From contig NC_087245.1 in NCBI RefSeq assembly GCF_037042905.1, positions 22,880,001-22,944,000 on the forward strand: a stretch of DNA of 64,000 bases, written 5' to 3'. The notes below the pieces were generated by a model that saw only the letters and a list, made by a program, of their open reading frames with translations, was not told the origin of the DNA and made no database searches. The position numbers were made by a program, and so were the translations under genes. Position 1 is the stretch's first letter, and each line of letters starts with the position of its first letter. Origin of the DNA: Lytechinus pictus. Taxonomy: Eukaryota. This document shows positions 1 to 43,310 of this stretch, in pieces.

Positions 1-3000
1 AGGACCAGTGGAAAAGAATGAGGCTCAATGCCAAGAAAGAACATTCCAATTTCAGTAAGGAATCAAGAAAGACTGGCGGAGGTCCACCTCCACCTGAGCC
101 CAGTCACTTCAGCATGATTGTGAAGGAGCTATGCCCAATGGATTTTCAGCAATTCAGAAATCCATTTGACGATGACAACGAAATCGCAGCCGAATACTTG
201 GCATTTGGATCGCTCAGTTCCATGGCAACAGGTCGTGCCACTGAGTAAGTCCATTTTATGGTTAAAATCAACATTTTCTAGGAATACATGTATAATCAGC
301 TCAAACAAAATGAATATTTTATAAATATGAAATGCTATTTGTAATTTTCAAACGACAAGATTGGGTAAAATTAAACTTCAAACTTTGGGCAAATCACGAT
401 CGTCTGCTCATCCTCACTCGTCCGAGTTCAGTCCCATCCATTGCAATCCATGTTATGAATTTTAAGACCAACGCTAGCGAACGAGCTGGCCGCCCGGAAC
501 TTGGGGATGCCACCGACTCAGCTTGTCGAACGTAGACGATCACCGCCAAATGAGGGTTTTTAGTCCCGGGTTCGGTAATCTAATCAATTGGCAAATTTCC
601 TTACAATATCATAGAATTTCATTTTAGTTGCTAGTATGAAGAATATTCTCAATTAACTACTTACATTGGCAGTGTAGAATGTCGCTCTTGTAAAATATGA
701 AGCCTACATTATTTAAAGTAAATTAGCAGCCAGTCGGCCAAAGGCAAAGCCAAGGCAAAGTTTTAAATCCAAGTTCAACAATTAATTTGCATACATATCC
801 ATTGCGCAGAATCCAAACGTTGTGTTCGGATCAGAGCGTCATGTTTGTTATAAACTTGAAGTAAAATGAGAAAATCAAAAGTAGATATGAACTTATCACG
901 AAAGCCTATTATACCGGGCTATTATAATGTCCATCAAAATTAAGAGAGAGAACGAGAGAGAGAGTAAAAATAACCAAAAAGGAAAAAACACTACCTAAGT
1001 CTTAATGAAAGTTATTAACGTCAATTCAACTCCATGGCATTACTGAAAATAAATCAGGAGGAACGTCTGAACATTACCCATTGTTGAGAGGCTGAAGTGA
1101 TGAAAGGTAATATGAATCATCAATAATTTCCTGGGGGGGGGGGGATCAACGTTGGTAAACGGTGACCGAGTAAAAGTGATTTCATATCCTTAGCTGATTA
1201 TGATTCAAGTGTGTACTTTTAAAACGAATTTATTATAAGTGTTTAAATGCTCACTCTTTTTAATTCCCCCTAAAACAGCTTCATGAATTTTATTCCATGG
1301 AAGGAAAAAAAGAGATCAATTATTTGAATTTATTCCCAGTAGCTTATGTAGACTTTTGGGGGGGGGGGGGGGATTTTGAAATGTTTAATTTTCAAAGGAA
1401 AATAGGGTACATCCTGTGGGTGAAATTGAACCCCTGAAATGGAAGGACCCCAAAAAATATTTGAAAGGATTTTTTTCCCAGCTCGAACATAAAAAAAATT
1501 GGCGAGGGGGGTGGACTTTGAAATATTTAGTTTTCAAAGGAAATGGGGTACGTCCTGTGAGGAAATTGAACCCCCTGAATTTTGCGGAAGGACCCAACAA
1601 AATATTACAAAGAAGGATTTTTTCCCAGCTCGAGTATAAAAAAAAATTGCGAGGGGGGGTGGTCTTTGGGGGATTTTGAAATGTTTAATTTTCAAAGGAA
1701 AATGGGGTATGTCCTGTGGGTGAAATTGAACCCCCTGAAATTTTGCGGAAGGACCCCAAAAATATTACAAAGAAGGATTTTGTCCCAGCTCGAAAATAAA
1801 AAAAAAATTGCATAGGGCTACAGGCCTGGATGTATTTAATTAATATTTTAGATATATATAAATATTGATACAATTTTGAAATGTGTAGGTGTTCCATTGG
1901 TTAATTGCATTCAATGCGATCACAAATATACGCAGAAATTAATCCCGGTGACAAGACACTGTTACATACAATTTTTCGTAAAAAACTACTTGTATGCAAG
2001 GGAGCGTATCGAGCAAGCTTTTGCATTTTCGAAAGCAAGGATTTTGTGCAAATTTTTATTGAATTTTGTCAAAATTCTTAGTAAAACTTTACCCCGTTTT
2101 CAAAAGGGAGGGGGTGACTGTCCCCGCTGCCACTGGCGTAAATCCGTGTTGATGGGTGGGGGGGATGACTGAAATATTTTGGCATTTTTTTGCAATCATG
2201 TTTTTAGATATGCAAGGAATTGTCATTGATATGTCCACAGTGGCGTACCGTGGGTCACGGCATTGGGGGGGGGGGGGGGCACCAGCAAAATTTTTGAATG
2301 ACTGAGTGAGTGACCTAATAGAGACATTTTAAGGACATTGTCATTAAACGGATATGTATCTCACTCATCAAATAATGCGAGCGCGAAGCGCGAGCTGAAA
2401 TTTTTTTATATTCACACCTAAAAAGGGACATTATAATCAAATTTGTGTAATCATGATAGGTACCTGTCTCGCTTAACAATGCGAGTGCGAAGCGCGAGCT
2501 GAAAATTTTTGATATTCAGATCAGAAGAAGGGACATTTTAAGGACTGATTTTAGGAATTCATGAAGAGTAGACATATCTCACCAATCCATGAAAAATGCG
2601 AACGTAATCACGGACAGGAAATGTTTCATATATACGAAGACCTTAACATGGGGCAATCACTTTTGAGTCATGAAAAAAAAGCATATGTCACTACATAAAA
2701 CAATGATAACTCAAGTGCTAGGAAATATATTTGGTTTATATTGACTTGAAAACGGGATGTTTTGGTACAACAGGATTATATATCTCGTTAAAAAGACAAT
2801 GCGAGCACCAGGAACAATTGAGACGTAGGCCCTGGGCAAATTATGTTTCATAAAGTTATGATAAAAATGTTTCTTATGTAATGTAACTTAACATAATTAT
2901 AATATAATATAACATTATAATGAATAATATTTTCTTCTTTCCCACTACGTTTCTCTTCCTTTCTCCCTCTTTTCTCATTTTCCCCCTTTCCCCGTTTTTT

Positions 3001-6000
3001 TTTTTGGTCAGCCGATGGGGGGGATGTGCCCCCCATGTCCCCCGTAGTTACGCCACTGTATGTCCATATGGCAAATACCCCTCCAATATTATTATCTTTT
3101 TTACCCCATGATGGTTTAATGGTTTATTAGAGATTACATTAAAAAAAAATTGACATTCCATCTTAATCCCTTCCCAAAGACCCCAACATTGATGAATTTG
3201 AGGTATTTCGTTTGGAAATGGTGAACTGGCTCTTTATTTGCATTTTATTATTCAATAATATTATTTTATTTGTTAAGCGGTATTTTTGGAAGAATTTTCA
3301 CCAATAAAACAATTATCTTTTGTGATTTTTTTTCATTTCTTTCGTAAAAAGTGGGGGGGATGTTTGTACAGGCCATCCCCCCCTCCTCGAAAAGTGGGGG
3401 GATATATCCCCCCCATCCCCCCCGGGATTTACGCCAGTGCCCGCTGCATATGGCCATGATTGCGATTTAAGTGGATTTTTTTTGCAAGAGATAGTCATTT
3501 AAATTCTCATATTCACGCATAAAAAAACGTTAGATACCAATTATCAGTGGTCCAATATTTGATTTTGGAGATTATCTACTAATATTTTTATGCTTTGACA
3601 ATCCTAAAAAAATTAAAAGGCCACCCCCCATCTCAAATGAAAAAAGTATATTAATAAAGGTTATTAAAAGCATGAATGAAATGAAATAAATATTTTTAAA
3701 TGTACAAGTTTTTATCAAGGGCAGCATCAATTTATTTTTATACATTTTAAATTAAAGCGGATCGGCCCTGTGGCAATGTAGCTACATGTATATGACTTTT
3801 GATGGGAAATATCATAAAAAAATAATAATGCAATGGATACTAACGTATATCTTTCTTTTTCCCCCATAAATAGTATCGAGGATCAATTCCAAAGACCTCA
3901 GTTGGATTCTGACACTGTGGAGCACACCAGGTAATTTTATCTTTATATTTTTCTTTAAAATCTTTGAAGGGCACATGAAAAAAAGGGAACTCACCAAGAA
4001 GAGGTGTATTTGTCAATACCAGTACCATTTTTGTACACCACTCCTAAAAAGAATTGAAAAATTATTGAAATAAATATAACACATACACACTCTCACACAA
4101 CACTGTACACACTTGCAAATGAAAGAATAATATAATTCATATATACATAAACATAAAATGATAAGTACTAATAACAAGTGAACCCAATTTCTTGTTGTAT
4201 CATTTTTTAGAATCTCTAAATTTATCACTTTTCCAAATGCATTTCATTTATATTGAACGATTAATAGGGAAGGTGGGAACTGGGAAATCAAAGAAAATGA
4301 AATATTTATTCTTACCAAAGTCAGTTTCATGTCAGGTATAAGGTCAAACTTCAAAGTACAATTATAAATATTGTGAAGAAAATTTGGCAATCTACAATTT
4401 TCATTCAGAATTTTTCTCTCAGCTGATGTTTAGAATTTTTTCTCTTTATACTCGGCACAACATCTAACAAAACATCTTCAACAAGAATATTCCTTGAACA
4501 AAGGTATTGAAGCATTCATTTCATGTTTATTCAATGGGAAACTGAAATACATGTGCACATTGACAACATTATATTAATATGAATTCATTTATTTTCTAAT
4601 TGCAACAGATTGTTGGCAATCCTTGCAAGTAAATTCAATTTCTGAGATGAATTATTCCTTTAATTTGAAATAAATACATTCATGCATAAATAAATTTTCA
4701 TGTGACTATTAAAGAAAACATTACATTTCATTGACATTTTCTTTCTCCCCAAATAGAGCAATTTCACCATCAGAAGCAGAATCTCATGATTCAACCCTAG
4801 ACCCAAGTGTTTCTACAATCATCAATATCCCAATTTCAAGGTACGCCTATTTATGAATTCTCAATATTTATCTTTATGTATGAAGATTTAAAAGTAAAAA
4901 AAACATGCAAACTTCTCCAACTGAATAGTTGGATCATCAATTTCAATAATTTTGATGCACATACATATTTTTTTTAAATCAGGAAATATTTGCATAAATA
5001 AATGATACCTACATTATTATTTTGATAGAATGGTGTGCGACAGCTTTTATTTTTAGAGTAAAATTACTCTATAATGAAATCTTTTCATTTAAAAAAATTG
5101 AAATTAATAGGACACCTTCATCAGGCTCAACTTCTCAAGGAAGTCAGATCGGAAATGGTGTGACGCAACTCACGCAAGGCCCTCTTTCAAGGTATTTTAA
5201 ATCACTAACACTGAGATTTCTCAAACTGTTGCTCTGATAAAGAAATGAACAAACATATTACTTTCATAGAATTATTTTTTTTCAGCAGGGTCATCACTTT
5301 CAATGACCAATTTCATGTACATGTTGCATATAAATTAGTATGTAGAATATAGTAGATTTTAACAATATTCAGTGATTCTGATATATGAATTAGGAACACT
5401 GACTGTATCTACAGTCATCAATTTACCCATTTCAAGGTATTCATGAATTCTCAATATTTATCTTTATGTATGAAAATTTAGAAGTGAAAAAAACACATGT
5501 TAACTGCTCCAACTGAATAGTTGGATCATCATTTTCAATAATATTTATGCAGGTGCACATACATACTTTCTCATGAAATATTTGAATAAATAGCAGATAC
5601 TTAAATACAATTTTGATAAAACGATGTGCAAGAGCTTTTATTTGCAGAGTCAAATTATTCTATAATGAAATATATTTCATTCCAAAACTTAAAATTAATA
5701 GGACTTCTTCATCATGCTCAACTTCACAAGGAAGTCAGATCAGATCTGGTGTGACGCAAATCACGCAAGGCCCCCTTTCAAGGTATTTTAAATCACTAAC
5801 ACTAAGATTTCTCAAACTGTTGCTCTGGTAAAGAAATGAATAAACATATTACTGTCATAGAATTAACTTTTTTCAGCAGGGTCATCATTTTCAATACACC
5901 AATTTCATGTACATATTGCATATAAATTAGTATGTATAATACAGTAGACTTTAACAATATTCTTCCAGTTCAACATATGATTCTGAAATATTAAGTCAAA

Positions 6001-6407
6001 TAAAATTCATTCAAGTTCATATATACATTTCATGTATATACATGTATACATATATACATACATTTCATTCCTTTTACAGCCAAAGATGATGTTTTTCTTT
6101 TAGTAAACAAGAGGTACATTTCTTAATATGCATTTTGATGTTCTCTCCTAGTCATGAAGAAAGAACTCCAAAGCCGCAGTCTCGCGGATTAAAGAGGGGA
6201 TGTACAAGTAATTCCCACCACAACACCGGGCCCAAAACGTCAACCAGCTCAAGTGAAGAAAGACTTGTTGAATTGGCGGAAGAAGAACACCAAATACGCC
6301 TTGAATACATGAGAATCGAGCATGAATTTAACATGGAAATCCTCAAAGTCAAGAAGAAAACAGAAGAAGCTAAGCTCAAGGCAGCTCTTTCTTCCTGTGA
6401 GGATTAA
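1..6407 (+). CDS. Harbinger Myb/SANT-like DNA-binding protein (MSANTD/NAIF1-like), 5'-partial; exons <1-244, 4757-4840, 5111-5191, 5702-5782, 6152-6407
   Basis: DQWKRMRLNAKKEHSNFSKESRKTGGGPPP matches the end of a Myb/SANT-like domain plus KTGGG motif. All introns are GT-AG and phase 2 and join in frame. Ser/Thr-rich linker exons, C-terminal coiled coil (EEEHQIRLEYMRIEHEFNMEILKVKKK), AATAAA at ~6856 and ~6897. Confidence 0.8.
1368..1810. repeat. Tandem repeat, three copies of a ~140-160 bp unit
   Basis: TTTGAAAT..TTTTCAAAGGAAA..GAAATTGAACCCC..GAAGGACCC..CCCAGCTCGA recurs from ~1371, ~1512 and ~1671. Confidence 0.9.
2131..3439. mobile_element. hAT-like MITE (outer)
   Basis: TIR CACTGGCGTAAATCC; perfect 8-bp TSD CCCGCTGC at 2123-2130 and 3440-3447. 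Confidence 0.85.
2238..3058. mobile_element. hAT-like MITE nested in 2131-3439
   Basis: TIR CAGTGGCGTA; perfect 8-bp TSD TATGTCCA at 2230-2237 and 3059-3066. Confidence 0.85.
4810..5960 (+). repeat. Tandem duplication (~590-bp period) of an exon-intron unit in the Myb-like gene
   Basis: 4810-5390 aligns with 5405-5960; the duplicated 81-nt exons start at 5111 and 5702. Confidence 0.9.
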
Positions 6408-7043
6408 ATCCTCCTTACTGCCTTATTTCATCTCTGATTTTGATGAACTTTGAAGTGTTTTCATTCGTTTATGTTTCTTCATATTTCTTCAGAACATTTA
6501 GTTTACTAGGTGGACTTGTCCCTTACATTGGCATTAATTACAAATTCCATATATCCTTCTTATTTCACTTTGATGTTGGTACATTTAATTACTTCAGATC
6601 TCAACCTGTAAGAGGTAGTTCTGCCCTTTGACACGAATGGCAGTAACTGTAACAGTATCTTTTAATGCTCCTTATCTTGTCTTTTAGAAAGTTCAAGTAT
6701 TTTAGATACAAGTTCTTTCATCATAATTTTCATTAACAAAAATTCTTTATCAGAGAGCATGTTCCAATCACCCATGCCATCTCTTGTAAAAAGACATATA
6801 TTTTTATGAGTACATATATATATATATAAATATATTTATTAGACCACCAATGTCAATAAAGTTGAAGAAATATCTATTATGCAGAAGATAAACGTCAATA
6901 AAGTGGAATTCAGACACTGTTAATGATCTTGTTGCTCTCAATTTATTTCTTTGCCATTGTGTCTATGTACCTTCTGCACATGAACGTTCAATAATTTTAT
7001 ATTTCCTAACTCCTAAGACTAGACTAAAAGTTCCATATCACAG

Positions 7044-8192
7044 GAGAAAAATGCAAGAACTGATGGCTTCCACAATTATTATTACTTTGAATTGTACGAT
7101 GAAGAAGTGACAGTAAATTACATCATCAACATGCTTGAAGATATTTTTGAGAGGAACACACAAAAAATATACTACAGGTAATGACAGCTCTACGATTGAC
7201 ACTATGATGAGGCATCAATATCACAGCTATAAGAGTAATAAAAAACGGTAGAAAACTAATGCAAGGAGGATGAAACAATCCTGACGTTTCAAACATTGAA
7301 AGAAGAAATTAATACAGGTCAACAGACAATTTTACAAGTACTGCAGCTAACCAGGCATACAAGGTGCATTGATGAGATATGTGTACATACAGAATCATGG
7401 TAGGAATAGCCAAATAACTTCTTGACAAGAACAACAGGATACCGCTCTTTGTGTAGGATGTTTGTTTCCCAGTGTAGCATACAACTGTATTTGCATTCTG
7501 AATTACATTCCAAATAGGAAAATGTCAAAACTAGAATGCCCTCCATATTAATCAAAATATATTCATTATTCTGATTATGTATTATATATTCTTTTCCAGC
7601 TTTCACTTTTTTTATTCCTTGTCTTGTGAACTAGCCATTATATAATAAATATACAAATTACCCATCATGCAGAGGGGGAAAAAATCAATATTTTTGCAGG
7701 GCTACTTTGGGGACAAGCCAGAATGTTAACTTTTGTATTACATGTACAGTTAACAATGGACCCTATGATATTTTTCGGGGGCTTTTCTTGTTTAGTTTAA
7801 CAGTGCTTTTTTTGCAGTTAATTAAGGGGCATATTCATCCGTAGCCCTTGTGTATTCTTTTCCCTGCTTACATCCTGATATTCTGTAATCCAAGCAGTTA
7901 AATTTCTCACCCATAAACATAGATTATTAGTTATCAAGGAAAAGGGGATGGGCATATAACCTTTTAAATATATTAATGCTTCTGGTAATAACTTTTCATG
8001 ATGGAGGCACCCTCCCCCCTCAAACAAAGGCCCAAACTTTCGGAATGTAATTCAGATGTAAATGTAGCTGCATGAAAACCTTGCTTGCTGGAAAAATAAC
8101 AAGTACCTTGGCAGCTTCATGATTTCCAAATATCCTCTGCAGCTACTGAATGAACGGTTGGAGGCAGAGCAGATAGTCCCGAGTGGCTACTT
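7044..8192 (+). pseudogene. Inverted, decayed copy of Harbinger transposase exons 2, 3 and 4
   Basis: Plus-strand fragments FELYDEE, YIINMLEDIFERNT, LQVMTALR, DEASISQ, RVIK, ARRMKQ, YCS*PGIQGA (7086-7440) and LAGKITS, HD, ERLEA, ADSPEWLL (8084-8192) are collinear with the minus-strand transposase. Many indels and stops. Confidence 0.85.
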
Positions 8193-8413
8193 TACTTTAA
8201 TGTAAGGCATGTCTGTGATATTTTCTTTGTGTTAATTCTGATGACAAAAAAAAAAAAAAAGAATTTGCACAAATGTGGGAGTGTTTTAATGTACCAAATT
8301 AAGCAATATTTAATAAGGAAAAAGCCTGAAATTTGCACTATAGAATTCAGGATAGTTAAGTTTCAGATTTCAAACATTTTCGTTCGGATCAAATTCACTG
8401 CCCTTCCCATGAT

Positions 8414-8746
8414 AAGTCGAACGCCTCTGGCAGTCTCGCCTGCATTACGCGAATCAATATAGCAGCAGTGATGACTTAGAAAACTATTAAATATACTCAC
8501 AATAGAAAACATGATCATTGACCCAAAATGACCTTTTTTTTACCTTGATCATATGACCTAAGACTTGTGCATAACAATAAGTGATCTTTGATTCCTCTCA
8601 TGTCTGTTTCATGAACTACATCCAAAAACTTTCATAGTTATGACATTACCAAAAATTAACCTCGGTTAAGATTTCATTGTTGACGCCGCCGTTGTCAGAA
8701 AAGCAGCGCTTTTAGTCCCGCTGTGCTACGCAGGTGAGACAAAAAT
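8414..8746. mobile_element. Non-autonomous Helentron/DINE-like (HINE-type) repeat; 5' part recurs at ~20658-20790
   Basis: Subterminal inverted pair GTCTCGCCTGC / GCAGGTGAGAC with an A-rich end; second copy begins AACAAGTGGAACGCCTCTGGCAGTCTCGCC. The class is inferred from structure only. Confidence 0.55.
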
Positions 8747-8781
8747 TACCTTCTATATGTATATACATACACAGACATGCC

Positions 8782-11700
8782 TTAACGATTAAAGTGATCC
8801 TCAATTATCTGCTCTCTCCTGAGCCTTCCTACGACAACGTCGTGGAGGCCAGGAGGAAGGTGGACAAGTGGAGGCATTTCCTCAGGCTCAGGTCCTGGAA
8901 TATCTGGCTCGCGCCGGTCAAGAGAGATATTCCACAGGACCGAGCAAGACACTATGATTGCAAATGTAGTGTCCACCTTCACGCGGAGATAATTGAGGCA
9001 AGGGAACCTCCTCTTCAAACGACCAAAGGTCCGCTCAATAATACAACGCCCTCTTTTGTGGGCAGCATTATAGCGTACCTGTGGCCGTCCCTGAGGATTC
9101 AGGAGAGGGGTCATGAGATAGGGAAGACATGGGTACCTGAAATGGAAATGGAAAAAAATACATGTAAGTCTCTTACTATTAAATTTATGTAGGGAATTGG
9201 ACGCACTAATTAATAATTTCCTAAGCGATTTATTTCAAAGCAATACAGTAGAAATTTGAAAAATTATGATCCATTTCTTATTCTTGCCACAGCCGTTTGC
9301 ACAAATACAAAGTAATAAGAGAACCAAATCTGAAGTTGAAACTTTATAAATTCAATCCAAAATGGACAAATTAATTCTACTTTATACTAATGAATTAATG
9401 ATAAAATTATTGTACTTTCTAAGTAAACCATATTAATATCTCACCCCCCTCCCCTTCCATCAAAGAAATCTATGCTGATGAAGTGGGTTCTTTTATTTTG
9501 TGAAATAATGGATCCCTCTTTTGTTTTCATTAAGAAAAAATAAAATGTAATTATTGAATTTGAATTACAAGAATAATAAATTGGGGGTGCCACATTTTGG
9601 GTGCATGTGACATCTCAATAATAAAGTTTAATTAATTCAGATTATCCTTTAATAGTCATTATAACAATTTAACTAGATATTTTGGTGTAGGTTCCTTTAA
9701 GAAAGGGATACACTTAATGACCAATGTACATACCCACTATCTCCAAGAAGCCACTCAGCACCATCTGCCCTTGCCTCCAGCTGTTCCTTCAGTGAGCTCT
9801 CATTGAAAATCCGGGAATCATGGGTGCTGCCAGGCCACCTTGCCACAATACTTGTTATTTTCCCAGCAAGATCACAAACTACCTATTAAATTTGAAAAAG
9901 TAGACATACATGAATCACACATTTACATGTACATTGCATTTCAAGCTTGGCAGGTAATTTAACTGCACTTACTTTCCTGATTATTGCAACATTCTTCCAA
10001 ATGTGTTATTTGACTCAACTGCCTGCAGTTAGTGCAGCAATCTCCCAACATATGAATTTGAATGACCCTTGGCAAATTATATTCAGTCTCCTTGCACTTA
10101 TATTCATTAATTGATATGTAAAATCTTAACATAGAACAAACATTTAAATTACCCTTTCATAATAATTGATAATGCAAGAAGTTAATAGTTTAATAAATTC
10201 CATTTTTGTATATCCTAGTTGCAATATGCAAATGAAGGGTATGGATAGATGACATTTATAATTATCTATATAAGAATTGCAGTCTTGTGTTGATGCATGT
10301 ATATGGCCTAAATCAGGGATTCTCAAATGGTGGCACGCACGCCACTTGTGGCGCCCAGAGCCTTGCGGAGTGGCGCGTGGGAGCCAGTACAAAAAAAAAA
10401 GAAAATAAAAGTTCGATCTACTATTAACCTGGAATTGAGGTTTAATAATTTTATAACAAAGGGAATACAAAAACTTGACTGTATTTGAAATTTAAATGCG
10501 TATTAATTTCCTTGGATTTTGTGTAATCTAGCATTCGATATCCCTATTATGGAAGATCAATCGGATGGTGTTCTTTTTTTATATTCATTTTATTTTTGAT
10601 GTATTCACTTAAATTTTGTAGTATGTTGGCATTTTTATATCTTCTGTTAATTTAGAACCCTTCTTAGCCATTATTGAAGGCTTCATATTTTAAGCACTTC
10701 AGGTAGCTCTGCATCCTCGTCCCCCTCCCACCACCACAATATTTAGCTCATTCACGTGTTGGACAGTGGAGCAGTCCAGATTTTCGGAGCTTCAAAAAAA
10801 GTAATCGTGCACAGCTGGCCAAAATAATATCACATTATTCATATTCACATAATTCCATAACTATTTGGTTGAAAATTAATTTGATTTTCCCAATTTCGGA
10901 TGGGAATTAAAAATTACAAATTTACTTACCTGAACATTGACCGAATATCTGTTCTTCCTGTTCAAGAAGTACATGGCTTGTTCGCCACCAGGACTCTGGA
11001 TGTAGACATGAGTCCCATCAATTGCACCAATGACCCCTGGAAATCTGCAGTAGTCGTAAAATTGCTGCTGGGTCGTTTCAACTTCTTCTCTCGTTGCAGG
11101 AAAGGTCATGAATTGCCTCTTCCTCCTTGCAATAGCTTCAGACACATCTTTGATCACTCTACTGACAGATGACTGTGATACTGTTGCCTCATCACCATGC
11201 ATCCTCTGGAAAGATCCTATGTTAGAAAGAAAAATGAGATCAAATCGACATTCATAAAACAAACTAAATGAAACTACTCTAGAAATAGTTAATGTCAACA
11301 GCAATAATAATAATACTAATCCTTATATTGACTTTAAGCTTAATCACAGTTTGAGCAATTGAATAGCCCTATTTAAAAGTTATTTAAAATCTGAGAACTA
11401 AATAGCACAAAAGAATAGATTGAGGGATCGAAATTCAATTAAGGACATTCATCACTTAAAGTGAAGCCCATGTCATTACGACCAAACTTCACATATTTAC
11501 CTTAATTAAATATAATTACAAGATAAGTGTAAGCCTCTGTAAAGCCTCATGATTTCACATCTGGTCAGAATGCACTTTCTGTCAATTTCAAATCAATGGA
11601 AGATTTATTAGCATTTAAAATATACATAGCAAAGCAATCTTTATTTGCTCAGAAAAGATACATTTTTTGGTGCTATTAATATTAAGGGTACATCAATTAC

Positions 11701-12697
11701 TCACCAACGGCATAAAATCGTAGAACTGTCAAAACCTGTAGACTGACTGGTAGAGGATTGTTCCTCTCCGTGTTCCTCGTCAAGTCTGCTTCAAGCATGT
11801 CGATGATGTAGATGACGCTCTCCTTGGAAAAACGATATCGTATCCGGAATGCTTCTTCATCGTACAATTCAAAAGGGTCCTTCAGGTCCCGGGGACCTCT
11901 TTGTGGCCTCCCTTCTGGATTCTGTGTACATATAGGGGACAGTTGCATGTTTTAGCAATATCTTTAAATTTGTTCAAATAATGTAAATATATGAGTTCAT
12001 AGATCTAGTTTGCCAATGAATTCCAAACTTGGACCAGAATAGATCACTCAGGGTATCGGGAGTCTTAAAGAAAATTACTTGCAGGTGAGACAAAAACAAA
12101 ATAGTGAGTGAGGGACATCTCGACTGTCTCATGTCACTGAGTTGTGCATATCACTATTTGTGAAAAATAAGCGAAACTTTAAAAGGACATACTGTAGCTT
12201 ACTTAATCTTATTTTACATCCAATTTTGATGAATTTTAAGCATTATGCTAATTTGATTTTTCTCCATTTATTCAAATCAACATTTTTCTGGGGTGGACTT
12301 GACCTTTATTTAATGTTCATTTATAAAAAAATAATAATTGTCTCCACATCTTTTCATTGCAACCAAGGGATGCAATGGTTTGATAGGATCAGGATTGTTA
12401 ACACTAACTGCCCTTCACATGGTTAAAAAATCGTAATTTGAATTATTCCAGTGAAAAACAAGGCTAATGACGAATATTTAGCACGTGTGAAACCAAACTA
12501 GAACATGATTAGAATCATGAACGCTAATAACAATTACAATAGCAATCATTACAATGAATCAAGATTCACATGTGAAAAGGCCCTTGGTAGTACAGAACAC
12601 AAATCTAATTTGACCAATGAAATAAAACCTCTTTTGACTTGTATATTCATACCTCTCTCAATCTTCGGATACGACGAACGTGATGAAGATAGGCCAT
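8782..12697 (-). CDS. HARBI1-like: Harbinger (HARBI1-like) DDE transposase, apparently intact, 350 aa; exons 12697-12653, 11921-11705, 11216-10930, 9882-9734, 9136-8782
   Basis: Exons join in frame (phases 0,1,0,2; 1053 nt including stop). Motifs RYRFSKE, LRFYAVGSFQ, GAIDGTH, NRKNRYSVNVQVVCD, WPGSTHDSRIF, LLGDSGYP, RYNAAHKRGRCIIERTFGRLKRRFPCL; D-D-E triad present. Confidence 0.92.
10314..10817. mobile_element. Degenerate hAT (Charlie-like) MITE in transposase intron
   Basis: Starts CAGGGATTCTCAAA and ends GCACAGCTG; flanks GCCTAAAT / GCCAAAAT form an 8-bp TSD with one mismatch. Confidence 0.5.
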
Positions 12698-12816
12698 ATT
12701 TACGATGTTTGCAACTCTGTGACACAATAGAAAATTGATACTGTATTAATTCATGCAAGACGATAGGCATAAATAAAAACAATTTATATAAAGCATCTCA
12801 TCATTCATGCAAAAAA

Positions 12817-13369
12817 CCCGGGGGGGCCAGTTCCATTCACGAGTGGATACCATGCGCGACCATGGGGTCTCGAAAAGCACCCTAAACACGTAATTTCCAT
12901 ATTCTGAAAATGCACCCCTTAACAAGTATTGGCGTGTGAAACCCTACCCTTAACAAGTATTGGAAACAAAACGATACTCTTGGCAAATATTCCCTGAAAC
13001 GAACCCCTAAACAAGTACAGGAATGTTTTATTGTTACGGGTCTTTCGGTCGTCGGCTTTACCTATTTTGGTTTAGTACGACCCCATCTTCTACATCTCGC
13101 GAAAATTGGACTCTAAACACGAAGTGTTGGGGCAAAAAGGACATCCTTTATAAAACATTTTAATTTTGTTTTATCATCCCCGCAAATTCGACCCTAAACA
13201 CGTAATTGTCCTATAGCGAAATAGATACCCTTTTTTCATTATTTTTGTGTTTTTGACACCCTTATCACGTTACGTACGTAACGTGCCCTATCGTGAAAAG
13301 GACATCCTTTTTACGTGTTTTTTTGGTCGCGCATGGTATCCACCCGTCAATGTAAGTGGCCCCCCCGGG
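12817..13369. mobile_element. MITE with CCCGGGGGGGCCA TIRs
   Basis: ~45-bp imperfect TIR (CCCGGGGGGGCCA...GTGGATACCATGCGCGACC); flanked by (G)CAAAAAA on both sides. Confidence 0.85.
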
Positions 13370-13769
13370 CAAAAAAAATAAAAAAAACAAGACAGCTAAC
13401 ATTAATCATTGTCAAGGAAAAATGTAAAATGTATTAAGATCCCAATCCCCATAATAATAGGTTATGATCACAGTGACATAACCCCCCCCCCCCCGGGTGA
13501 CCAGACGTCCCGTCCCGACATACCCTTCCCGGGACGCCTATTTGTCCCGTATTTCAGAATATTGAAAAAAGTATAATTAATACATAGAAATGTGAAGAAT
13601 ATTCATCAAATAACCAACAGATGACAAAGCAGACGTAACATTAAAATTGATAACTGTTAACTTGCAAGTTCTACGGTGATTTTCTTGCTACCCAATACAT
13701 TGATAACGAACTGGCCTCCTGCCTGTGTGTGGCAGGCTATTAATATAGCTAGGCATGTTGGATCGGAGA

Positions 13770-14290
13770 AGATTTTTCGTTAAAATGATTGGATTTTTTG
13801 TTTGCTTTAAGTTTGAACTTTTTCCTCTTTTTTTTCATTTTTCTTTCTTTTCTATCCTTCCTGCTTGCCTTTTTTCTCAATCTAACTTCATTTCCAATCT
13901 TTCCTATTTATGTTCATTTGTCTTTCCTTCTTTCTCTTACTTTCCTTCTTTTTTAAAGTTCCTTGTTTTTATTTCCTTCCTTCTTTCTTTCCTCAAACTT
14001 TTCTTTGCTTTCTTCTCCACCTTTCTCCCCTTTTTCTTTTTGTTCTTTCTCTCCTTCCATTATTGTTTTTCTTTCATTTTCTTATCTCTTCATTCTTTCC
14101 TCCCTCGCTTTAATTCATCCATCCTTTTTCATTCTTTATTTTATTTTACCCTTCCAATTCTTTTCCCTTTAATTTCTTTCCTCCCCTCCTGATTTTTTCT
14201 TTCTTTCAGTTTCTTTCAAAGAATGAAAGAAACATTTTTCTTTCCTTCATTGTTTAATTCGTTCTTCCTCCTTTTTTCCCATACTTTCAT
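13770..14290. repeat. CT-rich low-complexity tract
   Basis: Nearly pure pyrimidine sequence; the overlapping Phe/Ser/Leu ORFs are artefacts. Confidence 0.9.
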
Positions 14291-14362
14291 TTTGCAAAAT
14301 GTGCATAAATTAACATATTTAATGAGTAAAAAAATTTGTGTAGAAGTTTAGAATCCCCCACC

Positions 14363-14524
14363 AGTATCGTTTTGTTTCCAATACTTGTTAAGGGTAGGAT
14401 TTCACACGCCAATACTTGTTAAGGGGTGCATTTTCAGAATATGGAAATTACGTGTTTAGGGTGCTTTTCGAGACCCCATGGTCGCGCATGGTATCCACTC
14501 GTCAATGGAAGTGGCCCCCCCGGG
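14363..14524 (-). mobile_element. One-ended copy of the CCCGGG MITE, inverted relative to 12817-12978
   Basis: Near-identical reverse complement of 12817-12978; flanked by the direct repeat CCCCCACC at 14355-14362 and 14525-14532. Confidence 0.85.
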
Positions 14525-15549
14525 CCCCCACCTAGTGCTATGATATAGCAAACAGAACTGAAATCGGACTTGAAATGACGAAGTCGAAGAAGCTTTTTTT
14601 CTTTTTTAATTGTGGACGGATGACAGGATCTCAGGGGGGAGGGTCAAAAGTTTCAATTTCGCCCGTCCTCTATGCTACGGCTACGCACACGATTATCCTA
14701 CTAACTAGATTTTATTATTATTTAGCCTAAGTTAGTAAGTAATTTGTTAGGACAGTTCGGGCCAGGGGCAGGAGGACCACTCAGTTACGTTAGCCTAGGG
14801 CTAGGCTATAAACTTAACTAAGGCTTAACGTTAGAAGAGCTCAGTCAGACTCACCCAAAAAGGCAAAGCCCAAACTAACTTAAGGGTTCATTACATGCCG
14901 CCGCGCACAGAAAAATCAACCATTAGTAACTTAGTCGTGTTGTGCACACCAGAAGTGAGATCCCAGCACGCGCGACCCACTAGTTAGAAATCCACTGCCA
15001 AACGCGGTTCATGGGCATGGTGCGAGGTTACTAACCTCGCAATACGTGTGTGTGAGTAAGGCTCTCTCAGTCTCACTCAGTCTCACTCAGTCAGACTCAG
15101 TTGATATAGATTATAGCTCGCTTCAGTACAGCCTCATAACATAAGATAGTCATAAGTCATAATCATATTCAGGATATTCATATCATTCATATCATAGGCT
15201 AAAATAATGCCATGGCATGGAATGCAAATCATCATATTCCAAGGTTTCTTTATTTAATTCGTTTGAAATTCGCTTTGTCCACGTTACATTGAGATCTAAT
15301 CAATGTCCACCCTTGTGCGAGGCGAGATCGCGATGATTGAAGGATCGGGCGAAACTCGTGTATAACTTCCAACACAAAAGTGAACAAATGGGACTAGCAT
15401 TAAAACACTGCTGCGATAACGTAAAAAACAACAATGTCATGGTCTTTTCGAATGACAATTTATTGATTTAAAATAAATACGAGGTATGCATATAATGTTA
15501 ATACGAAATTGAATGAAAATAGGCATCGGAAATATAACGATATACTTAC

Positions 15550-15650
15550 GATTTGTGCTTGAACTTGGCCACTATCACACACGATACGGCGGATTTGGAC
15601 TGAATCGTCTGCAAATTTGTCTTCAAAATTTCGGCGCCAAGATGGACAAG
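15550..15650 (-). promoter_or_regulatory. Putative non-coding leader exon and promoter region of the transposase
   Basis: Minus-strand GTAAGT donor after 15550, 300 bp inside the TIR; similar sequence and donor at 23200 in Element 2; acceptor available at 12716. Confidence 0.5.
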
Positions 15651-15850
15651 TCGATTTTGCGCACGCGCGTTTAGGAATTAAACCACCCCTATGAGCAGTC
15701 TAAATTAAAACCAAATTATGACGTAGTTAAACCCCCCGGCGGTTTAAACTTCTTTTGTGAATAGCAAAATCGAGACCGTGGTCTAAATTTAAACCTTAGA
15801 GGGGGTTTAAACCTCGACCATGGTTTAAACTTCTTTTGTGAATTCGGGCC

Positions 15851-18800
15851 TTTGAGTACACCGATTTTATCAGCTCTTCTGATTGTGATAGGAAAAGGAC
15901 ACTCTGTAACACGGTAGGTGGTATTCCGATAGCTTTGGTTTAGTTTAACCTGGGCCCCGTCTTACAAAGAGTTGCGATTGATCCGATCAATCACAAATAA
16001 GGACAGCCAGCAACGTCAACATCTAAAATGCACGTTTGTTCAAAATATTTTCTAGATATGATGTATATTCATTGTTTTCTTGAAAATTCACAATGCTTCT
16101 CTTTCTTTATAAAAGACATTGGCCCGAATTCACAAAGGAGGTTTAAACCCCGAGGGGGTTTAAACCCCCTCCTAGGTTTTTTAGTCCACGGTTTAAACCC
16201 CGAGGGGGTTTAAACCCCCTCTCTGTTTCACCAACGATGGTTTCTTTAGTCCATGGTTTAAAATTAAACCATGGTTTAAACCATGGTTTTATTTTAAACC
16301 ACGGTTCTGAGCATGCTCAGTAGAGCATATGTTGTCTGCTACGGTCCTTGTTGACGATGGCAAACGGGGTTCGAAAATCCAAAGTATGGGGTTTAAACTA
16401 CCGATTTTCGCTATCTTAATCGATTATATGAAATGAAATTACATTAAAAACTTATTCATTGTTGGATGAGTCGAATTGTATTGTACATCCACTATTTTTA
16501 GATATATCACAAAATGCAAGAAATTGAAAATTTGTCTCAACCACTGCGGTCGTCTGCGCGTCGACGATAATCTCATTTAAGTCCCATCCATAGACATCGA
16601 TGTCAAGTTTTTAATCATTGAATACATTTAATTCGGCTGAAAATGAAATGACAACAACCAGATGTAATATCAAGATTACCCGATGAAACTTGAAGTATGA
16701 ATATAATTACTTCATCAGTTTAAAAAATAAGTAGTATCTTATCAGATAACTTCCTCATAATACTTACATTTTGGTGGTAAGCGGCATTTAATACGAAAAT
16801 CAGCTGTTGATTTTGCATGTCTACGATCTCGATCGCTGAGCTGAGAGTTAACAACGCGCATGCCCGTACAGTCGTCCGGCAACCAATCTAAAGGCATGGA
16901 TCTTCTTATGCTTTTTCAGTATAAAAACAACAATCATAACAAAGATTGTCGATCAGCTATTTTTACGTCATAATCAAACTTGCGAAACAATCTTTGAATC
17001 TAGTTCCATCGTCAAAAATATAATATTTCAATTCAAATGTAAATTCTAGAAAGAACACGTCCCCAAATTTACCCATAATTCTTTTCTGAAGTAAACTTTA
17101 TCCTCCAATTTGTTTATGTTCCTTTCCTAAACTTGAGACCGCCCTGATTTATTCCCTAAATCTTGACTTTATTTTTTTAATGGTAATCAAAAGTGCATCC
17201 CATAAGTCTAGCACGCATAGAAATAAATATTTGTGGATCACTGAAACATGGGCGGAAATCCCTACTTAAAATAGTTTAGGTCTTTTTTGGGAAGATAACC
17301 TTTTTTTGGGATGGGGTAGTTGTAGAATTATTTGATTTAATTCCCAAAATATTTTAAAGGTTTAGCATATATATTTCCTAAATAATTTTTATTAAAATAA
17401 ATAATTTGAATTTCTATTTCTCATTTCAATTCAAAAATTGTTTCAATAGTTAAACAATATTGAAGTGAAAATAAATTGATGAAGTGTTCTTTCACGTTCT
17501 CATAATCTTTCTCTTGTTCCCGCTCATTTTCTTTCTTTCTCTCAAACACATACACCATCCTACTACCTTTTTCTCTCTGTCGCCCCCTCCTCCCCCTTGC
17601 TCTTTTGGAAATACATGTTTTTAAATGGAAATATAGGCATTACAAATTGGCATTCTAACTAAAATAAAAGTTATTGAGCTCTTGGTCACAACCATTCTTA
17701 ACCAACTCTTCCCCCCACACATTTCTCTATAAAATCTATCTTACATCGAAGCAGTTTAAATATTTGAAAGTTATCTATTTTTTTATTTCAATATTTCAAG
17801 GTGGTGTACATAGAGAAATCATGAAAATTGCAATATTCAATCATAAAATTATTTCCTGTTTTAATGATTGTACAACAGAATACCTTGGCATAAATTTATA
17901 ATGGAAATATTTTCAAATGTCAAATTCATTAGAGTGTATATTCTATAGGCATATAATATTCTCAGTACATGTAATGTATTAATCCAATAAACAATAATGC
18001 TTCTCCCCCCCCCCAAAAAAAAAAAAACATTGCAGGTCATGTACAGATCAAGTTCCAATAACACCTAGCAAAGCCAGTGCATCTACTATGACTTCACTCC
18101 CTTCACGCCTTTTTTTGTAACTGTGTTGACATTAATAAAAAAAAAGATTTTATTTTTTAAATTGATTTTTTAAAATTAATTTGTAATTCTCCAATGAATT
18201 CATTTTCATACATACCAAATTATGTTAATAAGTTTGTTCAGATCAATTATGCATTTCTTTAAAAATCTATATAAATATCAAGTATTCCACATAATTAAAC
18301 AGTCATCTTTCTTATTTCCCTCAACCATGAAATACGGCAACTTCAAATCCAGCACTGCCTCAAGTTACACCACCCAATCAACCAAATGCATGTACTCCGA
18401 TTTCATTTCCCCATTCTAGGTGAATATTTCTGACAATATATCTGACATCCTCCCCCCATAAAATATATATATATATAAAAGGGGGTACTTATCACAAATC
18501 ATAAAAGTGCAGAATACAATTTTCCTACTAGTGAAAATCCTTTTAAGCAAGCACTATAAAATTGCATTCTTAATCCTTATTGCAATACATAATTATAAAT
18601 AAAACTACTCTTGCGTATAAGAAATTTAAATAAAACCTAATCAAACATCCTGTCTCCCCAACTTCAAATCCATCATTGACTGAAGACATATCTGAATAAA
18701 TCAACCGTATAAAGAACATTTATCTTTTAAATATTTTATGAAACAAAAATACATTTAATAACCTATTGAAATAAAGATTTCTTAAATTAAGAACTGCATC

Positions 18801-21800
18801 CTCACAAAATGAAAGGTCATTCTTTCTTCTTTTTTATGCTTGTTGCAATTAATACACAAATAATGATTGCAAATATGAAAACTCCATGTCCAGTTTAAGC
18901 TAATTTTGAATAAAAGCTATCTCACAAAGTGGACCTCTCAAAAAAAAAAAATCCCAAATCATAATATAATTACATGATCAAGAGTATTCATCACTTTCCT
19001 TGAAACAAAATAATAAAACCCTCCCAACTGAGATGAATGAGACACATTGTTGAAATTTATAAACCAGCATAAGAACAGAAGTTCATCTATTTTTTTCACC
19101 ACGAGGACAAATTCTACAAATTCATTTCTGTCCGAGTTATCAAGGAAACGTTCCCAGACTGATGGACCTTCTTCAAAATCACATTCCTCTTCAAGGTAAT
19201 TTAGTACCATTAAAATTACAATGCCTTTTTTTCCATTAACCCTTTCTGCCAGAATATCTCTTTGACCAGACTCATAAATCAGATGTAGTTGAAATAGATG
19301 TTAAATACTTTAACAAATTAAACATGATCCCCAAATCAAGTACATGTACATTTAATTACAAGATCATGTTAATTGGATGCACAATACACTGGTACACACA
19401 AAATAATCTGAATATACTACAGATATGTAGTACGATATTTAGAGGTGAAGAGGGATTTATATAACTGAACTGGGAGGGTGAATAATTTGAAGTATGAAAA
19501 GGGCTTCAATATATGTATGTTACCAGATTCAAGCGATTCAATGAACTGTGCACTGAATATTGTATGCTTCTGAAAAGAAAGCATTGCATTATTTTCTGTT
19601 TTTAAAGAAATTTTATAATTACCGGGTAAGTCTTTAATGTTTTCCAAAATTCAATTTATGGTTCTGAGAACAATCAGAGAACTCCCCAATGTCATTGGTG
19701 TCAGAAGCTGAACCAATCAAGTAGAGAGTTACTAGTACGTTAAACAACACATCTTTGACAACGTGATTTATAGTATGTTTCTTACAAACTGCACTGTTAC
19801 TATATGTTATGTACTGGTACTTCAATATTGAATTTTAACCCTGCAGCAATACTACAAACCTTCCTTCTTCTGCAAAATGGAATTTGAATTACCCATCTCA
19901 AGGAAAAAAGGATCATCTGTCAGAAGTGTTTGAGCTGGTAGAAGTGCATGCCGTTAGAATTGAAGTTCAATGGAAGAAGCATGATCTCGACTTTAAAGAG
20001 TACAAGATGAGAGTGAAAGAACACAATATGAGATTGAAAGAGCACGATATGAGCTTGAAGGAGCATGAACTATGAATTGACGTTTTGAATAAAGAAAGAG
20101 AGGTTGCTGAAGCTAAGCTGCTGGAATCACAGGGTTATACCAATCAATTTATTAACAAATAAAGAAGTAAAGTATTCTTCATAAATTTGAATGAACTCTG
20201 CTTTTCTATGTTCTTAATACTTTTGCCATTGTTATAGGCATTCCTCTCCACATGAATTTGGAATGGGGTATATAGGAAGCATATGGCCCAATCCCCCTCC
20301 CCCCCCCCCTGGGCTCTTGATGTAGACATGTGTCCCATCAATTGCACCTTTCACTCCTGGAAATCTAACAATACTGGTAGAACTGTGGCTGAGTTGCTTC
20401 AACTTCTTCTCTTGTCAAAGGAATTGTATAGCTTCCGACACATCTTTGATGATCCGACACATTGATGACTGCGATATTGCTGCCTCATCATCATGCATCT
20501 TTTGAAATGATCCTGTAAAATCAAACAAACCATATGGTTGATGGGTGAGGTGATTGTTTCGAGGTAATTTTAAAACATTTCATTGAAGCACATATAGATT
20601 TTAAACAATGAATATCCATCTTGTACAAATATCAGACAATTTTCTCCAATTTATTTTAACAAGTGGAACGCCTCTGGCAGTCTCGCCATCATTATGCGAT
20701 TCAATATAGCAGCAGTGCTGACTTCAAAAACAACTATTGAATAATTTTTTTTGCCCAATGCTTTTATGACTTTTTACCTTGAAGTTTTGCACATCTTTTG
20801 ATTAAAAGTTAAAAAAATAATTGGGTTGTACAGTACCCGAACAACGTACCATTAATTTTTAATTTCAGCCAAGCTGACACTAGTGAATTATATTTGTGAC
20901 ATAAATTGAGGAAACAGAATTGAAATTAATAGAGAAATTACATAGAAGAAGCATTTTTTGGGATTTATGAATAAATTTTGCATAAATTAACAAATAATAT
21001 TCTAGTCAAAATTTCAAGTCTGTGTGGAAATTTGGGGACCCTTATCATGTAGCTCTACCAGATGGATGAAAAAAAAATCAAAATTGGTCAACAAATACAG
21101 AAGCATTTTTTGTGATTATGAATTTCGCATAAATTAGCATGAATAAATTTTGCATAAATTAGCATAAATAATTTTCTACTCAAAATTTCAAAAATTTTGT
21201 GTACAAATTTGGTGAACCTCATGAAGCTCTACCATGGGTTAATGGCAACATTTATAACTCTAACCTGACATAACAGTTGTAACAGCAGAGCCTCACTCCT
21301 GCTGTGGTACTTTTGGAATTTTTAAAGTATGCAATTCATAGGTACTTGACTGTTTGCTTAAATGATACATTTGTTTATGTGCTACCTCTCTGATTTCTAG
21401 ATATTGTCATTAACTTTATCTGGAGTCCTAAAATTAATAGAAACAACCTCAGTCAAATAGATTTAACAGTGCCAAGAAACATTCAATAATTGTTTATGAA
21501 AAATTCAATTACTCACCCACTGCATAAAAACGGAGAGTTGTCAACGCCTGCAAATAAACAGGAAGTGGATCATTCTTCTGTGTGTCCCTCTTCAATTCAA
21601 CTTCCAGCATATTGATGACGTACATGTCGGTTTCTTTTGACAGTCGATACCGATCTCGAAGTGGCCCATCCTCGTAAGATTCTGATGGATTTTTAGCATC
21701 AAGTAGCCCACGTCTTGGCAAAGGTAGCTGTATGCAGAAGAGTTGAATATTATTTTAAATTCTTTTATTTTGTGATCTTTATAATCGTTCCAAATCCAAA

Positions 21801-24800
21801 CTGGACATGAGCATGTAGATTTGATCTACCAACATAATTACTGCAATCTTAATTTTCTTCCCGAGATTAACAAAAACTACATTCGAGTTGTTATTTCATT
21901 TCTTCAGTCTGAAGATTTCATTTTCGTTGTCTCATCAAATCATTTCAATAACACTTTTGAACAAATTAAAACAATGTAAATCAAATTAATCATACCTCTT
22001 AGTAATTCAAGGTTGTGAAGATGGAGATAATCCATGGATATAGATCTACGGTTCCTCTGATGTCGATGTAATTCTGTGAAACAATGGTCAAAGTTTTAAA
22101 CAAACGTAAATTTTTCATATATAAAAAAAACAGTCATTGGTTTATCACTTAATACAGGAGCCTGTTGCAGACAGAGTTGCAATCAATCGTAACTCTTAAA
22201 ATCATGCGCAACAGCGCGTATTTGTGACTTGCGATTGATTTATTGGCTTGCGTTTAAACGCAACTCGTTCATAGTGAACATGGTGAATAATAAAAAAAAC
22301 AAAAATATTGTAATAATTTGTGCGAATATACCTTTCACAATTAATGGGTTTTTTTAAAAAAAAATTGGGGGGGGGCTATATTTTCTCCATTTGAATTTTG
22401 CAAGTGAAAAGATTTTAGACCAAAATCTGAGAAATTCCTACAGCCTCAAAAATTGGCCTGTGCCGAAAGGAAAGGTAGGTCTAGAAATAGACCAAAAGCT
22501 TCATTTCAGTCTCTGTATTTTGGTTGTTCCGCTGAACTGCGTTGGCTCCACTTTTTTTTTTTTTTTGTGAGTACCCCTCTGGCTTGGAACCATCTCCCAC
22601 CTGACATGCCTGACACAGTGAACAGCACATCACTAGAGGTGTTCAAGTCAAAGATCGAAAAGAGCTACCTACGATACGACTAAATATCACCGTGCCCTCT
22701 CTCACCCGCTGCATTCATACCAATTGGTCCAGCAGTGTACACATCCAGATCCAGAATTTTGAAATGCAATTTAGCCAGGCAAATTGAAAACAAAATTCTT
22801 TCTCTCTAAAATGCACCAAATAGTACAAAATTATATTGATCTAGGGTTATATTTTCATCTTGACATTTACAAATGAAGATATAGAAGGCACCATAATATA
22901 ATATCCTTGTGAAGCTCTTAAAAACAAATATTAAGCCCGGCCCGCGGCTGAGCTGCGCACCTTCAAATTCGTTCAACAACCACAGCGTCAAAATATCCGA
23001 ACACTTAAATGCACCGATGGGACTGTGGCAATACACACGCGACGATAAAGTGCATCGTCTGGACTTGTCAATACCAAAACCTCGTTCGCAATCATGAAAA
23101 ACAACACTATCAATTTCATAAAACTACATAAAACGAATCAATATATTCCAGAGAAGTACAGCGGGAATTTATTTTACGAATTCAAAGAAGAATACTTACG
23201 AATTTCTGATCAAGAAGACCACTTGACACATCCCAGACGGCAAAGAAAATTCTCTTCACTTCGCGGATTTTTCAGAAACTTCCCAAGTGCGCATGCTCGT
23301 AAAGATAAACCATGGTTTAATTTTTTTAAACCACATCTCGGAGCTGACTAAAAAATATGACGTTTCATGACGTTTTATGACGCATTTAAACCCCCTCGGG
23401 GTTTAAACCTCCTTTGTGAAACGCAAATGAAAAACCCAGCTCGGGGTTTAAACCAGGAGGGGGTTTAAACCACCAAAAACCAGGAGCTAGGTTTTTTGTG
23501 AATTCGGGCCAATGTGTTACTTTCCCATATAGAAAAAATTATGTTATGAATGGATTTCCATAGAGTTATGATTGATTGGGTCAATCGTAACTCTTTGTAA
23601 GACGGGGCACTGGTTTAACTTGGACGTCATTTTTATGGGTGCCAGTTGTAAACTTATTCGCCATGTGAAAACTATTCGTTTCCTGGTGCAAAAAATATCA
23701 ATTTTTTAAACGAGTCTAAAAACGAGAGTTATACGAAAGTACAAAAAAAACATATTGAATTTTCATTAATTAATTGGTTATTAAATTGTCACGAATATGG
23801 AAAAAACATATAGAGCCAGCATTCAATAGAAATGTGGTATATAATTCTTGTTTAAACTAAGGTTAAACCTAGGTTTAATTATCAGGGGCGGTATTCTGAG
23901 GTCATTTTATCTTTAAAATATTTTATTTTATCTCTTAAAATGAAATTGGTATTCTGAGATGACATTTTATCTCTCAGATAAAATTTTGAATTTTATCTTG
24001 CATATAAATTTTATCTTGCGTATCTACAGATGACACGCAACAGAGGAGTGCCTGCGTAGACATACCCATCGCGTATCTGGCCATGCAACGCGGATGATGT
24101 GCTCGCGCCCATGTTACTTTGAAGAAAAAATAAAATAAACTTAAAAGAGGGTAGGGGCTGTTTTATCTCTGCGACGTTGCTTTTATCATTATTTCTTGGT
24201 GAATTAACTACAAATGTTGACATGAAAATTAAGAAAAATTATATATTTATTGAGAATAATACCTTAATGTTATTCCTGTACAATCAGGAAGTATTTCATA
24301 AAACTTTTCTTGACTAATATTGTCTTTGAAATGATGCTTGAAAAGATGTGATATAGACTTCGAAAAAAGATGAGAGTATTGTCATTTTTTTAAAAGAAAT
24401 CTCTGTAAAGACGCGCAAGCGTATTTTGCAAGCGTATTTGAAGTCAATAAATTGACGCAATATCACTCCTTTGCCACACCTCAGCTCCTGGCGGAATGGA
24501 TTTTCATTGGTTGAGTGATATGAGAGAGCTATAAAAGCGCATTTTTAATTGGATATTGATTAAAAAATAGGTGTGTCTTACAGAGATAAAATGAAGATAA
24601 AATTGTTCTCAGAATACTAATTCGGAGAGATTTTAAGGGTATTTTATCTCACTGATTTTAACGGAGATGAATTATCTGAGATAAAATGGATCTCAGAATA
24701 CCACCCCAGAATATTATACCTGTGAGTTTATACGGAAGATTAATTACATTTTCATATTTATAACGAAGAAGGAACAGCAGCAGCAGCAACAACAACAACA

Positions 24801-43278: not shown

Positions 43279-43310
<32 letters not shown>

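Follow-up and report, generated by a model that had tools for sequence, protein, structure and literature searches.

Within what its genes and right terminal repeat mark as a large Harbinger-type element of Lytechinus pictus, the intact transposase gene is adjoined by an inverted copy of itself, which runs from position 7086 (perhaps 7044) to 8260 and lies tail-to-tail with the gene. Our best explanation, to which we would give about an even chance, is that this copy is an old retrocopy of the neighboring transposase mRNA that was inserted in cis and in inverted orientation, has no function, and has been decaying ever since. Read-through transcription would make the copy pair with the message; however, the copy most probably dates from an old accident and is not a working brake. 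All positions refer to the window, the whole 64,000-nt stretch of contig NC_087245.1 that was analyzed (G+C ~35%), and the features are collected in Table 1.

Table 1. Features of the host element, the inverted transposase copy and the neighboring sister element
Feature	Position	Strand	Remarks
Myb/SANT-like partner gene	1..6408	+	5' part precedes window; stop at 6408
Myb coding pieces	3-245, 3874-3931, 4755-4841, 5097-5195 / 5694-5786 (tandem-duplicated exon), 6150-6408	+	323-aa protein P0001 mapped there
Predicted Myb transcript end, two AATAAA	6855, 6897 (6855..6902)	+	left of copy
Uncertain 5' fringe of copy	7044..7085	+	equal fit of spliced exon 1/2 and of intron 1/exon 2
Copy part A: exons 2 and 3, start of exon 4 (12 nt)	7086..7468	+	exon 2/3 junction inside deletion
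Insert, 615 nt, imperfect inverted repeats at ends	7469..8083		core 7478-7514 / 8039-8074, 81%
Copy part B: most of exon 4	8084..8192	+	
Copy of stop-codon region and first UTR bases	8194..8221	+	reached after ~350 coding nt deleted
Copy of predicted 3' UTR end, 6-nt spacer and A15	8226..8260	+	A15 = 8246-8260
Predicted poly(A) signals of transposase mRNA, two ATTAAA	8309-8314, 8285-8290	-	U-rich run about 25 nt later
Repeat-derived insert in transposase 3' UTR	8414..8746		right end inferred; 8414-8493 matches 20661-20743 at 86%
Transposase gene, intact, five exons	12697-12653, 11921-11705, 11216-10930, 9882-9734, 9136-8782	-	350-aa open frame; GT-AG introns
Right terminal inverted repeat and sub-terminal region	15716..15850	-	72% over 139 nt to 23375-23510
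Element 2, decayed sister Harbinger	16121..23510		outgroup; layout as in host element
Element 2 transposase exons	about 21720-21516 and 20514-20315	-	
Element 2 Myb C-terminus	19869-20156	+	

The right-hand part of the host element would occupy positions 1-15850, and the element, which holds many inserts, exceeds 15.8 kb in length. Its left end precedes the window; the 16-mer at its right end (15835-15850) is identical to both ends of element 2. The transposase gene, on the minus strand, is convergent with a Myb gene on the plus strand. Read from the 350-aa translation, acidic residues of the transposase lie in the motifs IDGTH, HDSR, GDSGY and IERTF, which we take to be those of the DDE_Tnp_4 / IS5-type family. 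The Myb protein matches PF13873/PF13837, with PF13873 recurring in all 5 other matches; two single Myb exons searched alone in Pfam gave no Myb match, because the Myb domain begins before the window. Its nearest named relatives are from Strongylocentrotus purpuratus (68% identity) and carry three gene ids, as for a dispersed family. The host element thus has the Myb partner gene expected of PIF/Harbinger elements, a superfamily described in PMC13668399 as combining a transposase and a Myb/MADF partner inside terminal inverted repeats.

Several other properties of the host element were seen. Its introns and UTRs hold several inserts, yet the Myb and transposase frames are both open, and the Myb protein is the sole member of its 90% cluster; the element is possibly a long-resident or domesticated copy. 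The Myb gene contains a tandem duplication of ~591 nt (4848-5370 and 5438-5962, 78-94%) with an open exon in both copies, and in the S. purpuratus relatives the matching region consists of repeated Ser/Thr-rich units, with isoforms that differ by one unit. A young element of 1.7 kb, whose terminal repeats are 167 nt long (97%), lies at 12817-14524, inserted 120 nt ahead of the start codon of the transposase, and has an extra internal copy of its own end at 13324-13370. This insertion may disturb the transposase promoter or 5' UTR. An 83-nt repeat module (8414-8493 / 20661-20743, 86%) is common to the host element and element 2. In a metagenome scan, the terminal-repeat pattern retrieved 0 stretches, and the Myb alignment retrieved 2 relatives among 224 pattern matches. 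These are 37-38% identical, and their contigs, 1.5 and 4.4 kb in length, hold short inverted repeats only; they are too short and too distant to test the design.

Homology of the inverted copy covers exons 2-4, the region of the stop codon and the final 14 nt of the predicted 3' UTR, and the copy then ends in a run of 15 adenines (A15). Over exons 2-4, 371 of 476 aligned columns are identical (78%), with about 20 indels, and exons 2, 3 and 4 and the stop region each outscore 200/200 composition shuffles. At 8194-8217, the match to the stop codon and first UTR bases scores 39, compared to a maximum of 29 in 3000 random stretches. An initial annotation of this DNA had described a plus-strand relic of exons 2-3 and 4 at 7044-8192, heavily deleted but retaining short near-perfect blocks. 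The homology it reported is real and lies far beyond chance (200 shuffles for each part), and its three blocks were found exactly as given: 7086-7107 is the reverse complement of 11852-11873 (22/22), while 7119-7140 versus 11789-11810 and 8084-8105 versus 9849-9870 agree at 21/22 each. However, what it presented as a few islands is an alignment of 476 columns at 78%, and its boundaries need revision. On the right, the copy passes 8192 to include the stop region, the 3' mirror and A15. In the middle, 7469-8083 is an insert and does not belong to the copy. On the left, homology at 7044-7085 is insecure: this fringe scores 55.5 against spliced exon 1/2 and 53.0 against intron 1/exon 2, and without the adjoining block the values are 30.5 and 33.5, to be compared with a mean of 28 and a 95th percentile of 37.5 for random upstream sequence. 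Exon 1 and the 5' UTR, sought in 6950-8260, were not found.

Whether the copy was templated by spliced RNA or by genomic DNA hinges on the introns. The limits of the 7469-8083 insert were set by aligning its two ends to each other, and only 2/2000 random pairs scored as high as these inverted repeats. The insert is likely an old MITE; no second copy of it was found within the window. With the 615 nt removed, a gap-free match (42/58) spans the spliced exon 3/4 junction. The 12 nt beyond that junction, poorly conserved as they are, carry the evidence for it: they agree with exon 4 at 7/12 (P = 0.028, or P = 0.004 for a run of 6 nt), versus 4/12 with intron 3 (P = 0.43). We also considered that 7469-8083 might itself be a decayed intron 3 and rejected this, as its ends are inverted repeats of each other and its match to intron 3 is at background (P = 0.31). 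The 34 nt at the right end of the insert do resemble the end of intron 3 (76%, E = 0.013); the shuffle P value is 0.28, and these nucleotides are the insert's repeat arm.

Against the mRNA, the deletion at the exon 2/3 junction amounts to 24 nt, versus 512 nt against the gene, and 24 nt falls inside the range of the other internal deletions of the copy (1-30 nt). Element 2 has intron 2, and hence the absence of this intron from the copy is derived. There is no room in the copy for introns 2 or 4, the position of the latter falling inside a large deletion. Matches to introns 2 and 4 reached P = 0.02 and 0.047 versus other window DNA and P = 0.11 and 0.29 versus shuffles; tested in register, none of the introns outscored its shuffles. 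Of the four splice junctions, one (3/4) is directly joined and none is contradicted, 2/3 and 4/5 being inside deletions and 1/2 being ambiguous. Exon-only matching, the 3/4 join, the lack of room for introns 2 or 4 and the A-run where copy and gene meet are most simply read as a sign that the copy probably originated as a processed copy of the mRNA, placed at the gene's own 3' end. It bears two marks of a processed pseudogene, an exon join at one junction and a poly(A) run past the predicted mRNA 3' end. One caveat here is that large deletions did occur in the copy (~350 coding nt, ~150 UTR nt), and hence introns could have vanished in the same way.

The 3' end of the copy is informative as to how it came to lie where it does. 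Nucleotides 8226-8239 mirror 8260-8273 at 12/14 (P = 0.0006 in 30,000 random 14-mers, for a 14-mer picked post hoc), and A15 is among 8 A/T runs of at least 12 in the 64 kb. This mirroring of the UTR end, together with A15, places the copy and the gene tail-to-tail with a mirror center near 8250, roughly 25 nt beyond the closer minus-strand ATTAAA. A15 is likely a poly(A) tail, although, having survived 20% decay, it may instead be a U-rich element of the live gene. The best candidate for a target-site duplication is 6717-6737, which agrees at 15/21 (P about 0.02, post hoc) with the target-site sequence expected from the 8240-8274 junction; 300 nt separate it from detectable homology.

Use of ATTAAA as a poly(A) signal is predicted from established 3'-end rules, and the most likely signals, those at 8285 and 8309, would end the transposase mRNA about 50 nt short of the copy. 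The copy is thus located between the predicted poly(A) sites of the Myb and transposase genes. The initial annotation had pointed to ATTAAA variants near 8285-8315, which are present at 8309 and 8285 (with another at 8196), and to minus-strand AATAAA at 7611 and 6942, both of which exist, as does a further one at 6835. Its suggestion that the transposase 3' UTR could include the antisense blocks fares less well, as the predicted ATTAAA sites would end the mRNA before the copy; RNA that reads through these sites would nevertheless pair.

To trace the origin of the copy, we compared it with the live gene and element 2, used as outgroup, over the 281 columns common to all three. The copy shares its state with the live gene at 37 columns versus 13 with element 2 (p = 0.0009), and changes unique to the copy number 40 (14/11/15 by codon position), compared to 13 unique to the live gene (p = 0.0003). 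Mismatches between copy and live gene are spread evenly over codon positions (18/22/27%; heterogeneity p = 0.18), whereas those between element 2 and the live gene are concentrated at third positions (18/16/46%; p = 4e-9). By these comparisons, the copy derives from the host element's own lineage. The grouping and the flat codon pattern show that, after branching off, it underwent the decay of non-coding DNA, with the transposase remaining under selection. The same two grounds led us to reject a diverged sister family as donor.

How might a message come to be written, reversed, behind its own gene? If the DNA were nicked or broken shortly beyond the poly(A) signal, a T-ending 3' end would be freed on the coding strand, and this end could pair with the poly(A) tail of a transposase mRNA. 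Extension by a reverse transcriptase, either a LINE enzyme or a polymerase of DNA repair, would then write T15 and antisense mRNA directly behind the gene. On the minus strand, this predicts the UTR end, a T-run and, after it, antisense mRNA that begins at the message's 3' end, which is the order seen. Later, the copy would have gained its deletions, the MITE-like insert and about 18% substitutions of its own, while selection kept the transposase open; it may have been tolerated because the predicted poly(A) sites of the convergent genes enclose it and would leave it outside both mature mRNAs. Target-primed reverse transcription by a LINE enzyme (PMC5408686) and RNA-templated break repair (PMC12065846 and PMC11390984) are possible routes.

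A purely DNA-level origin must also be weighed. A break near 8250 followed by snap-back or template switching could have produced a fold-back duplication, now neutral, whose unstable palindrome then lost its introns and much other sequence through deletions. A mirror center with a loop of ~20 nt suits snap-back, large deletions did occur in the copy, and there is the weak collinear match between the end of the spacer and the end of intron 3. But this scheme needs introns 2, 3 and 4 all to have been lost and exons 3 and 4 to have been joined exactly; the ends of the intron 2 deletion would lie 11 and 13 nt from the splice sites; and A15 at the junction goes unexplained, except as a prior U-rich element. 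We therefore consider it rather unlikely. The initial annotation's alternative of a neutral relic fits better than a brake, but its account of that relic as a plain duplication or nested insertion gives way to a likely processed mRNA copy.

The other proposal of the initial annotation was a cis-encoded fold-back brake. In general form, and whatever the origin of the copy, read-through or alternative polyadenylation at 7611/6942 would yield a fold-back RNA that is diced, edited or retained, which would limit the output of transposase, with perfect helices of ~22 bp maintained by selection as the remainder decays. The pairing geometry is suitable, and the copy stems from the element's own lineage. 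When the spliced mRNA with read-through to 7040 was folded in silico, 427 of 1053 coding bases paired with the copy, in unbroken helices of 23, 22 and 24 bp (the next longest is 16). Computed duplex energies are 38-45% of that of a perfect duplex and far beyond those of shuffles. Both single block mismatches form G-U pairs, on minus-strand RNA only. Overall, 85% of columns are paired in minus-strand RNA versus 81% in plus-strand RNA, because G-to-A and T-to-C changes give G-U pairs on the former. Such G-U-tolerated transitions outnumber the opposite ones 35:15 (p = 0.013-0.068 over five alignment settings, post hoc), or 13:4 when polarized (p = 0.051). Element 2 has no overall G-U bias (28:26), although its G-to-A excess alone is similar. 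Deamination of a transcribed non-template strand would give the same direction of bias, which may thus show read-through but not selection. Also consistent with a brake are the predicted proximal poly(A) signals, which are of the weaker ATTAAA type, and the long residence of the copy beside a selected, open transposase.

The block statistics are less favorable. By permutation, the longest exact run has P = 0.15 and the three near-perfect 21-mers P = 0.05-0.06. Neutral simulation at the observed 22% divergence gave P = 0.20 for the longest run and P = 0.11 for three blocks, with ranges over four settings of 0.08-0.31 and 0.016-0.25, respectively. With G-U pairs allowed, P values are 0.082, 0.048 and 0.14 at thresholds of 20, 21 and 22 bp, so that three helices of at least 21 bp constitute the most favorable case. 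Two such 22-mers occur in element 2 as well, and it plays no mirror role. The blocks are A+T-richer than the remainder (GC 0.32-0.41 vs 0.46), and G and C have changed at 29-31% of sites, A at only 11%. The ~22-nt block size is at most borderline unusual compared to chance.

No pre-miRNA-like structure was detected either. A hairpin around blocks 1-2 was rejected (7050-7180, z = 0.61 on the minus strand and −0.87 on the plus strand), and none was found at 8040-8160 (z = −1.88 on the minus strand, where 11/200 shuffles were as good, and 0.37 on the plus strand). In amphioxus, another invertebrate deuterostome, a small-RNA survey reported no siRNA class (PMC6396948); small-RNA class data for sea urchins were not found in the literature searched. 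Decay that is even over codons, three times faster than that of the live gene and accompanied by about 20 indels argues against maintenance of the copy, as do blocks close to chance expectation (P = 0.11). A working brake is therefore improbable. More doubtful still is the fullest form of the idea, in which the mRNA was retrocopied onto its own 3' end and retained throughout the family as a brake switchable by poly(A)-site choice, with selection for Dicer-sized helices (22-24 bp).

Least probable of all is a nested insertion, in which a second family copy or a dispersed retrocopy landed reversed between the genes and lost its ends: Harbinger-type elements do nest in this window (element 2 lies inside the 15942-15996 / 23566-23620 TIR pair) and the inter-gene gap is the one harmless landing place, but no terminal repeat, promoter or Myb remnant was found flanking the copy, and its end lies within 20 nt of the live gene's predicted 3' end, which would be rare for random landing.

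Element 2 has matching 16-nt ends, a transposase that is truncated and frameshifted with a premature stop in exon 3, and a remnant of the Myb C-terminus. A deletion fuses its exon 3 almost directly to the Myb end, and hence it is uninformative on whether the inverted copy is ancestral. The inverted-repeat pair that flanks it is 87% identical, and element 2 appears to be nested within another TIR element directly beside the host element. Further inverted-repeat pairs at 35976-36592, 61918-62279, 38764-44374 and 40247-50947 are probably MITEs and larger TIR elements.

Among the closest known analogs is Mu killer of maize (PMC3440606), in which part of the transposase gene of a DNA transposon is likewise duplicated in inverted orientation, with a proposed fold-back RNA and siRNAs. 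Mu killer, however, is an element in its own right that has undergone deletion; it contains one terminal repeat twice, its inverted duplication measures ~1300 bp, and its silencing operates in trans. The same source favors short antisense transcripts over a long hairpin. The copy described here is, by contrast, inside an element with an open transposase, 78% identical to its parent, seemingly intron-less, and known from DNA alone. The 'Ac killers' p1-ww-id1 and id4 (bioRxiv 10.1101/2020.01.07.897926) are also inverted transposon duplications; they give dsRNA and 21-24-nt siRNAs, one being transcribed from the element's own promoter. They arose at the DNA level via alternative transposition, have arms of 1.8-3.9 kb of 5' terminal sequence, and are recent and experimentally active, whereas the present copy is 3'-anchored, old and decayed. 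Thus, of the hallmarks of killer loci, it has the inverted transposase duplication, while long near-perfect arms are absent (78% identity, ~20 indels, longest helix 24 bp).

On the RNA side, the Ppp4r1 retrocopy of mouse oocytes and psiPPM1K (PMC5408686) are likewise intron-less, 5'-truncated and able to pair with the parent mRNA. They are remote from the parent and work in trans or self-fold, whereas the present copy has a DNA-transposon gene as its parent and adjoins the 3' end of that gene in reverse. RNA-templated double-strand-break repair, in which a locus is mended with a local transcript of its own as the template, could produce a cis copy, and the accessible text of the two papers cited above for it contains no description of an inverted, A-tailed copy appended to a gene. 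For PIF/Harbinger elements, the available text of PMC13668399 does not describe an internal inverted transposase copy ('antisense' occurs 0 times, 'hairpin' once). Full-text literature searches, which covered mainly non-subscription papers, turned up no DNA transposon, Harbinger or other, that carries its own transposase as a processed copy in inverted orientation.

The inverted copy is most likely a single-locus curiosity. If the proposed origin holds, it is a genomic fossil of an mRNA copied back, reversed, onto its own locus, and it illustrates how a single step can create a hairpin directed at a gene; in the sources considered here, gene-directed hairpins have so far been seen mainly as DNA rearrangements (the Mu and Ac killers) or dispersed retrocopies. 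Decay has affected about a fifth of the mirror, yet the transposase has remained open, which shows that such a mirror need not kill the transposase. Were the brake real, this locus would make it possible to test whether a transposon restrains itself by its choice of poly(A) site, and in the fullest form of the idea, an animal would harbor an autonomous element that limits its own activity throughout the family.
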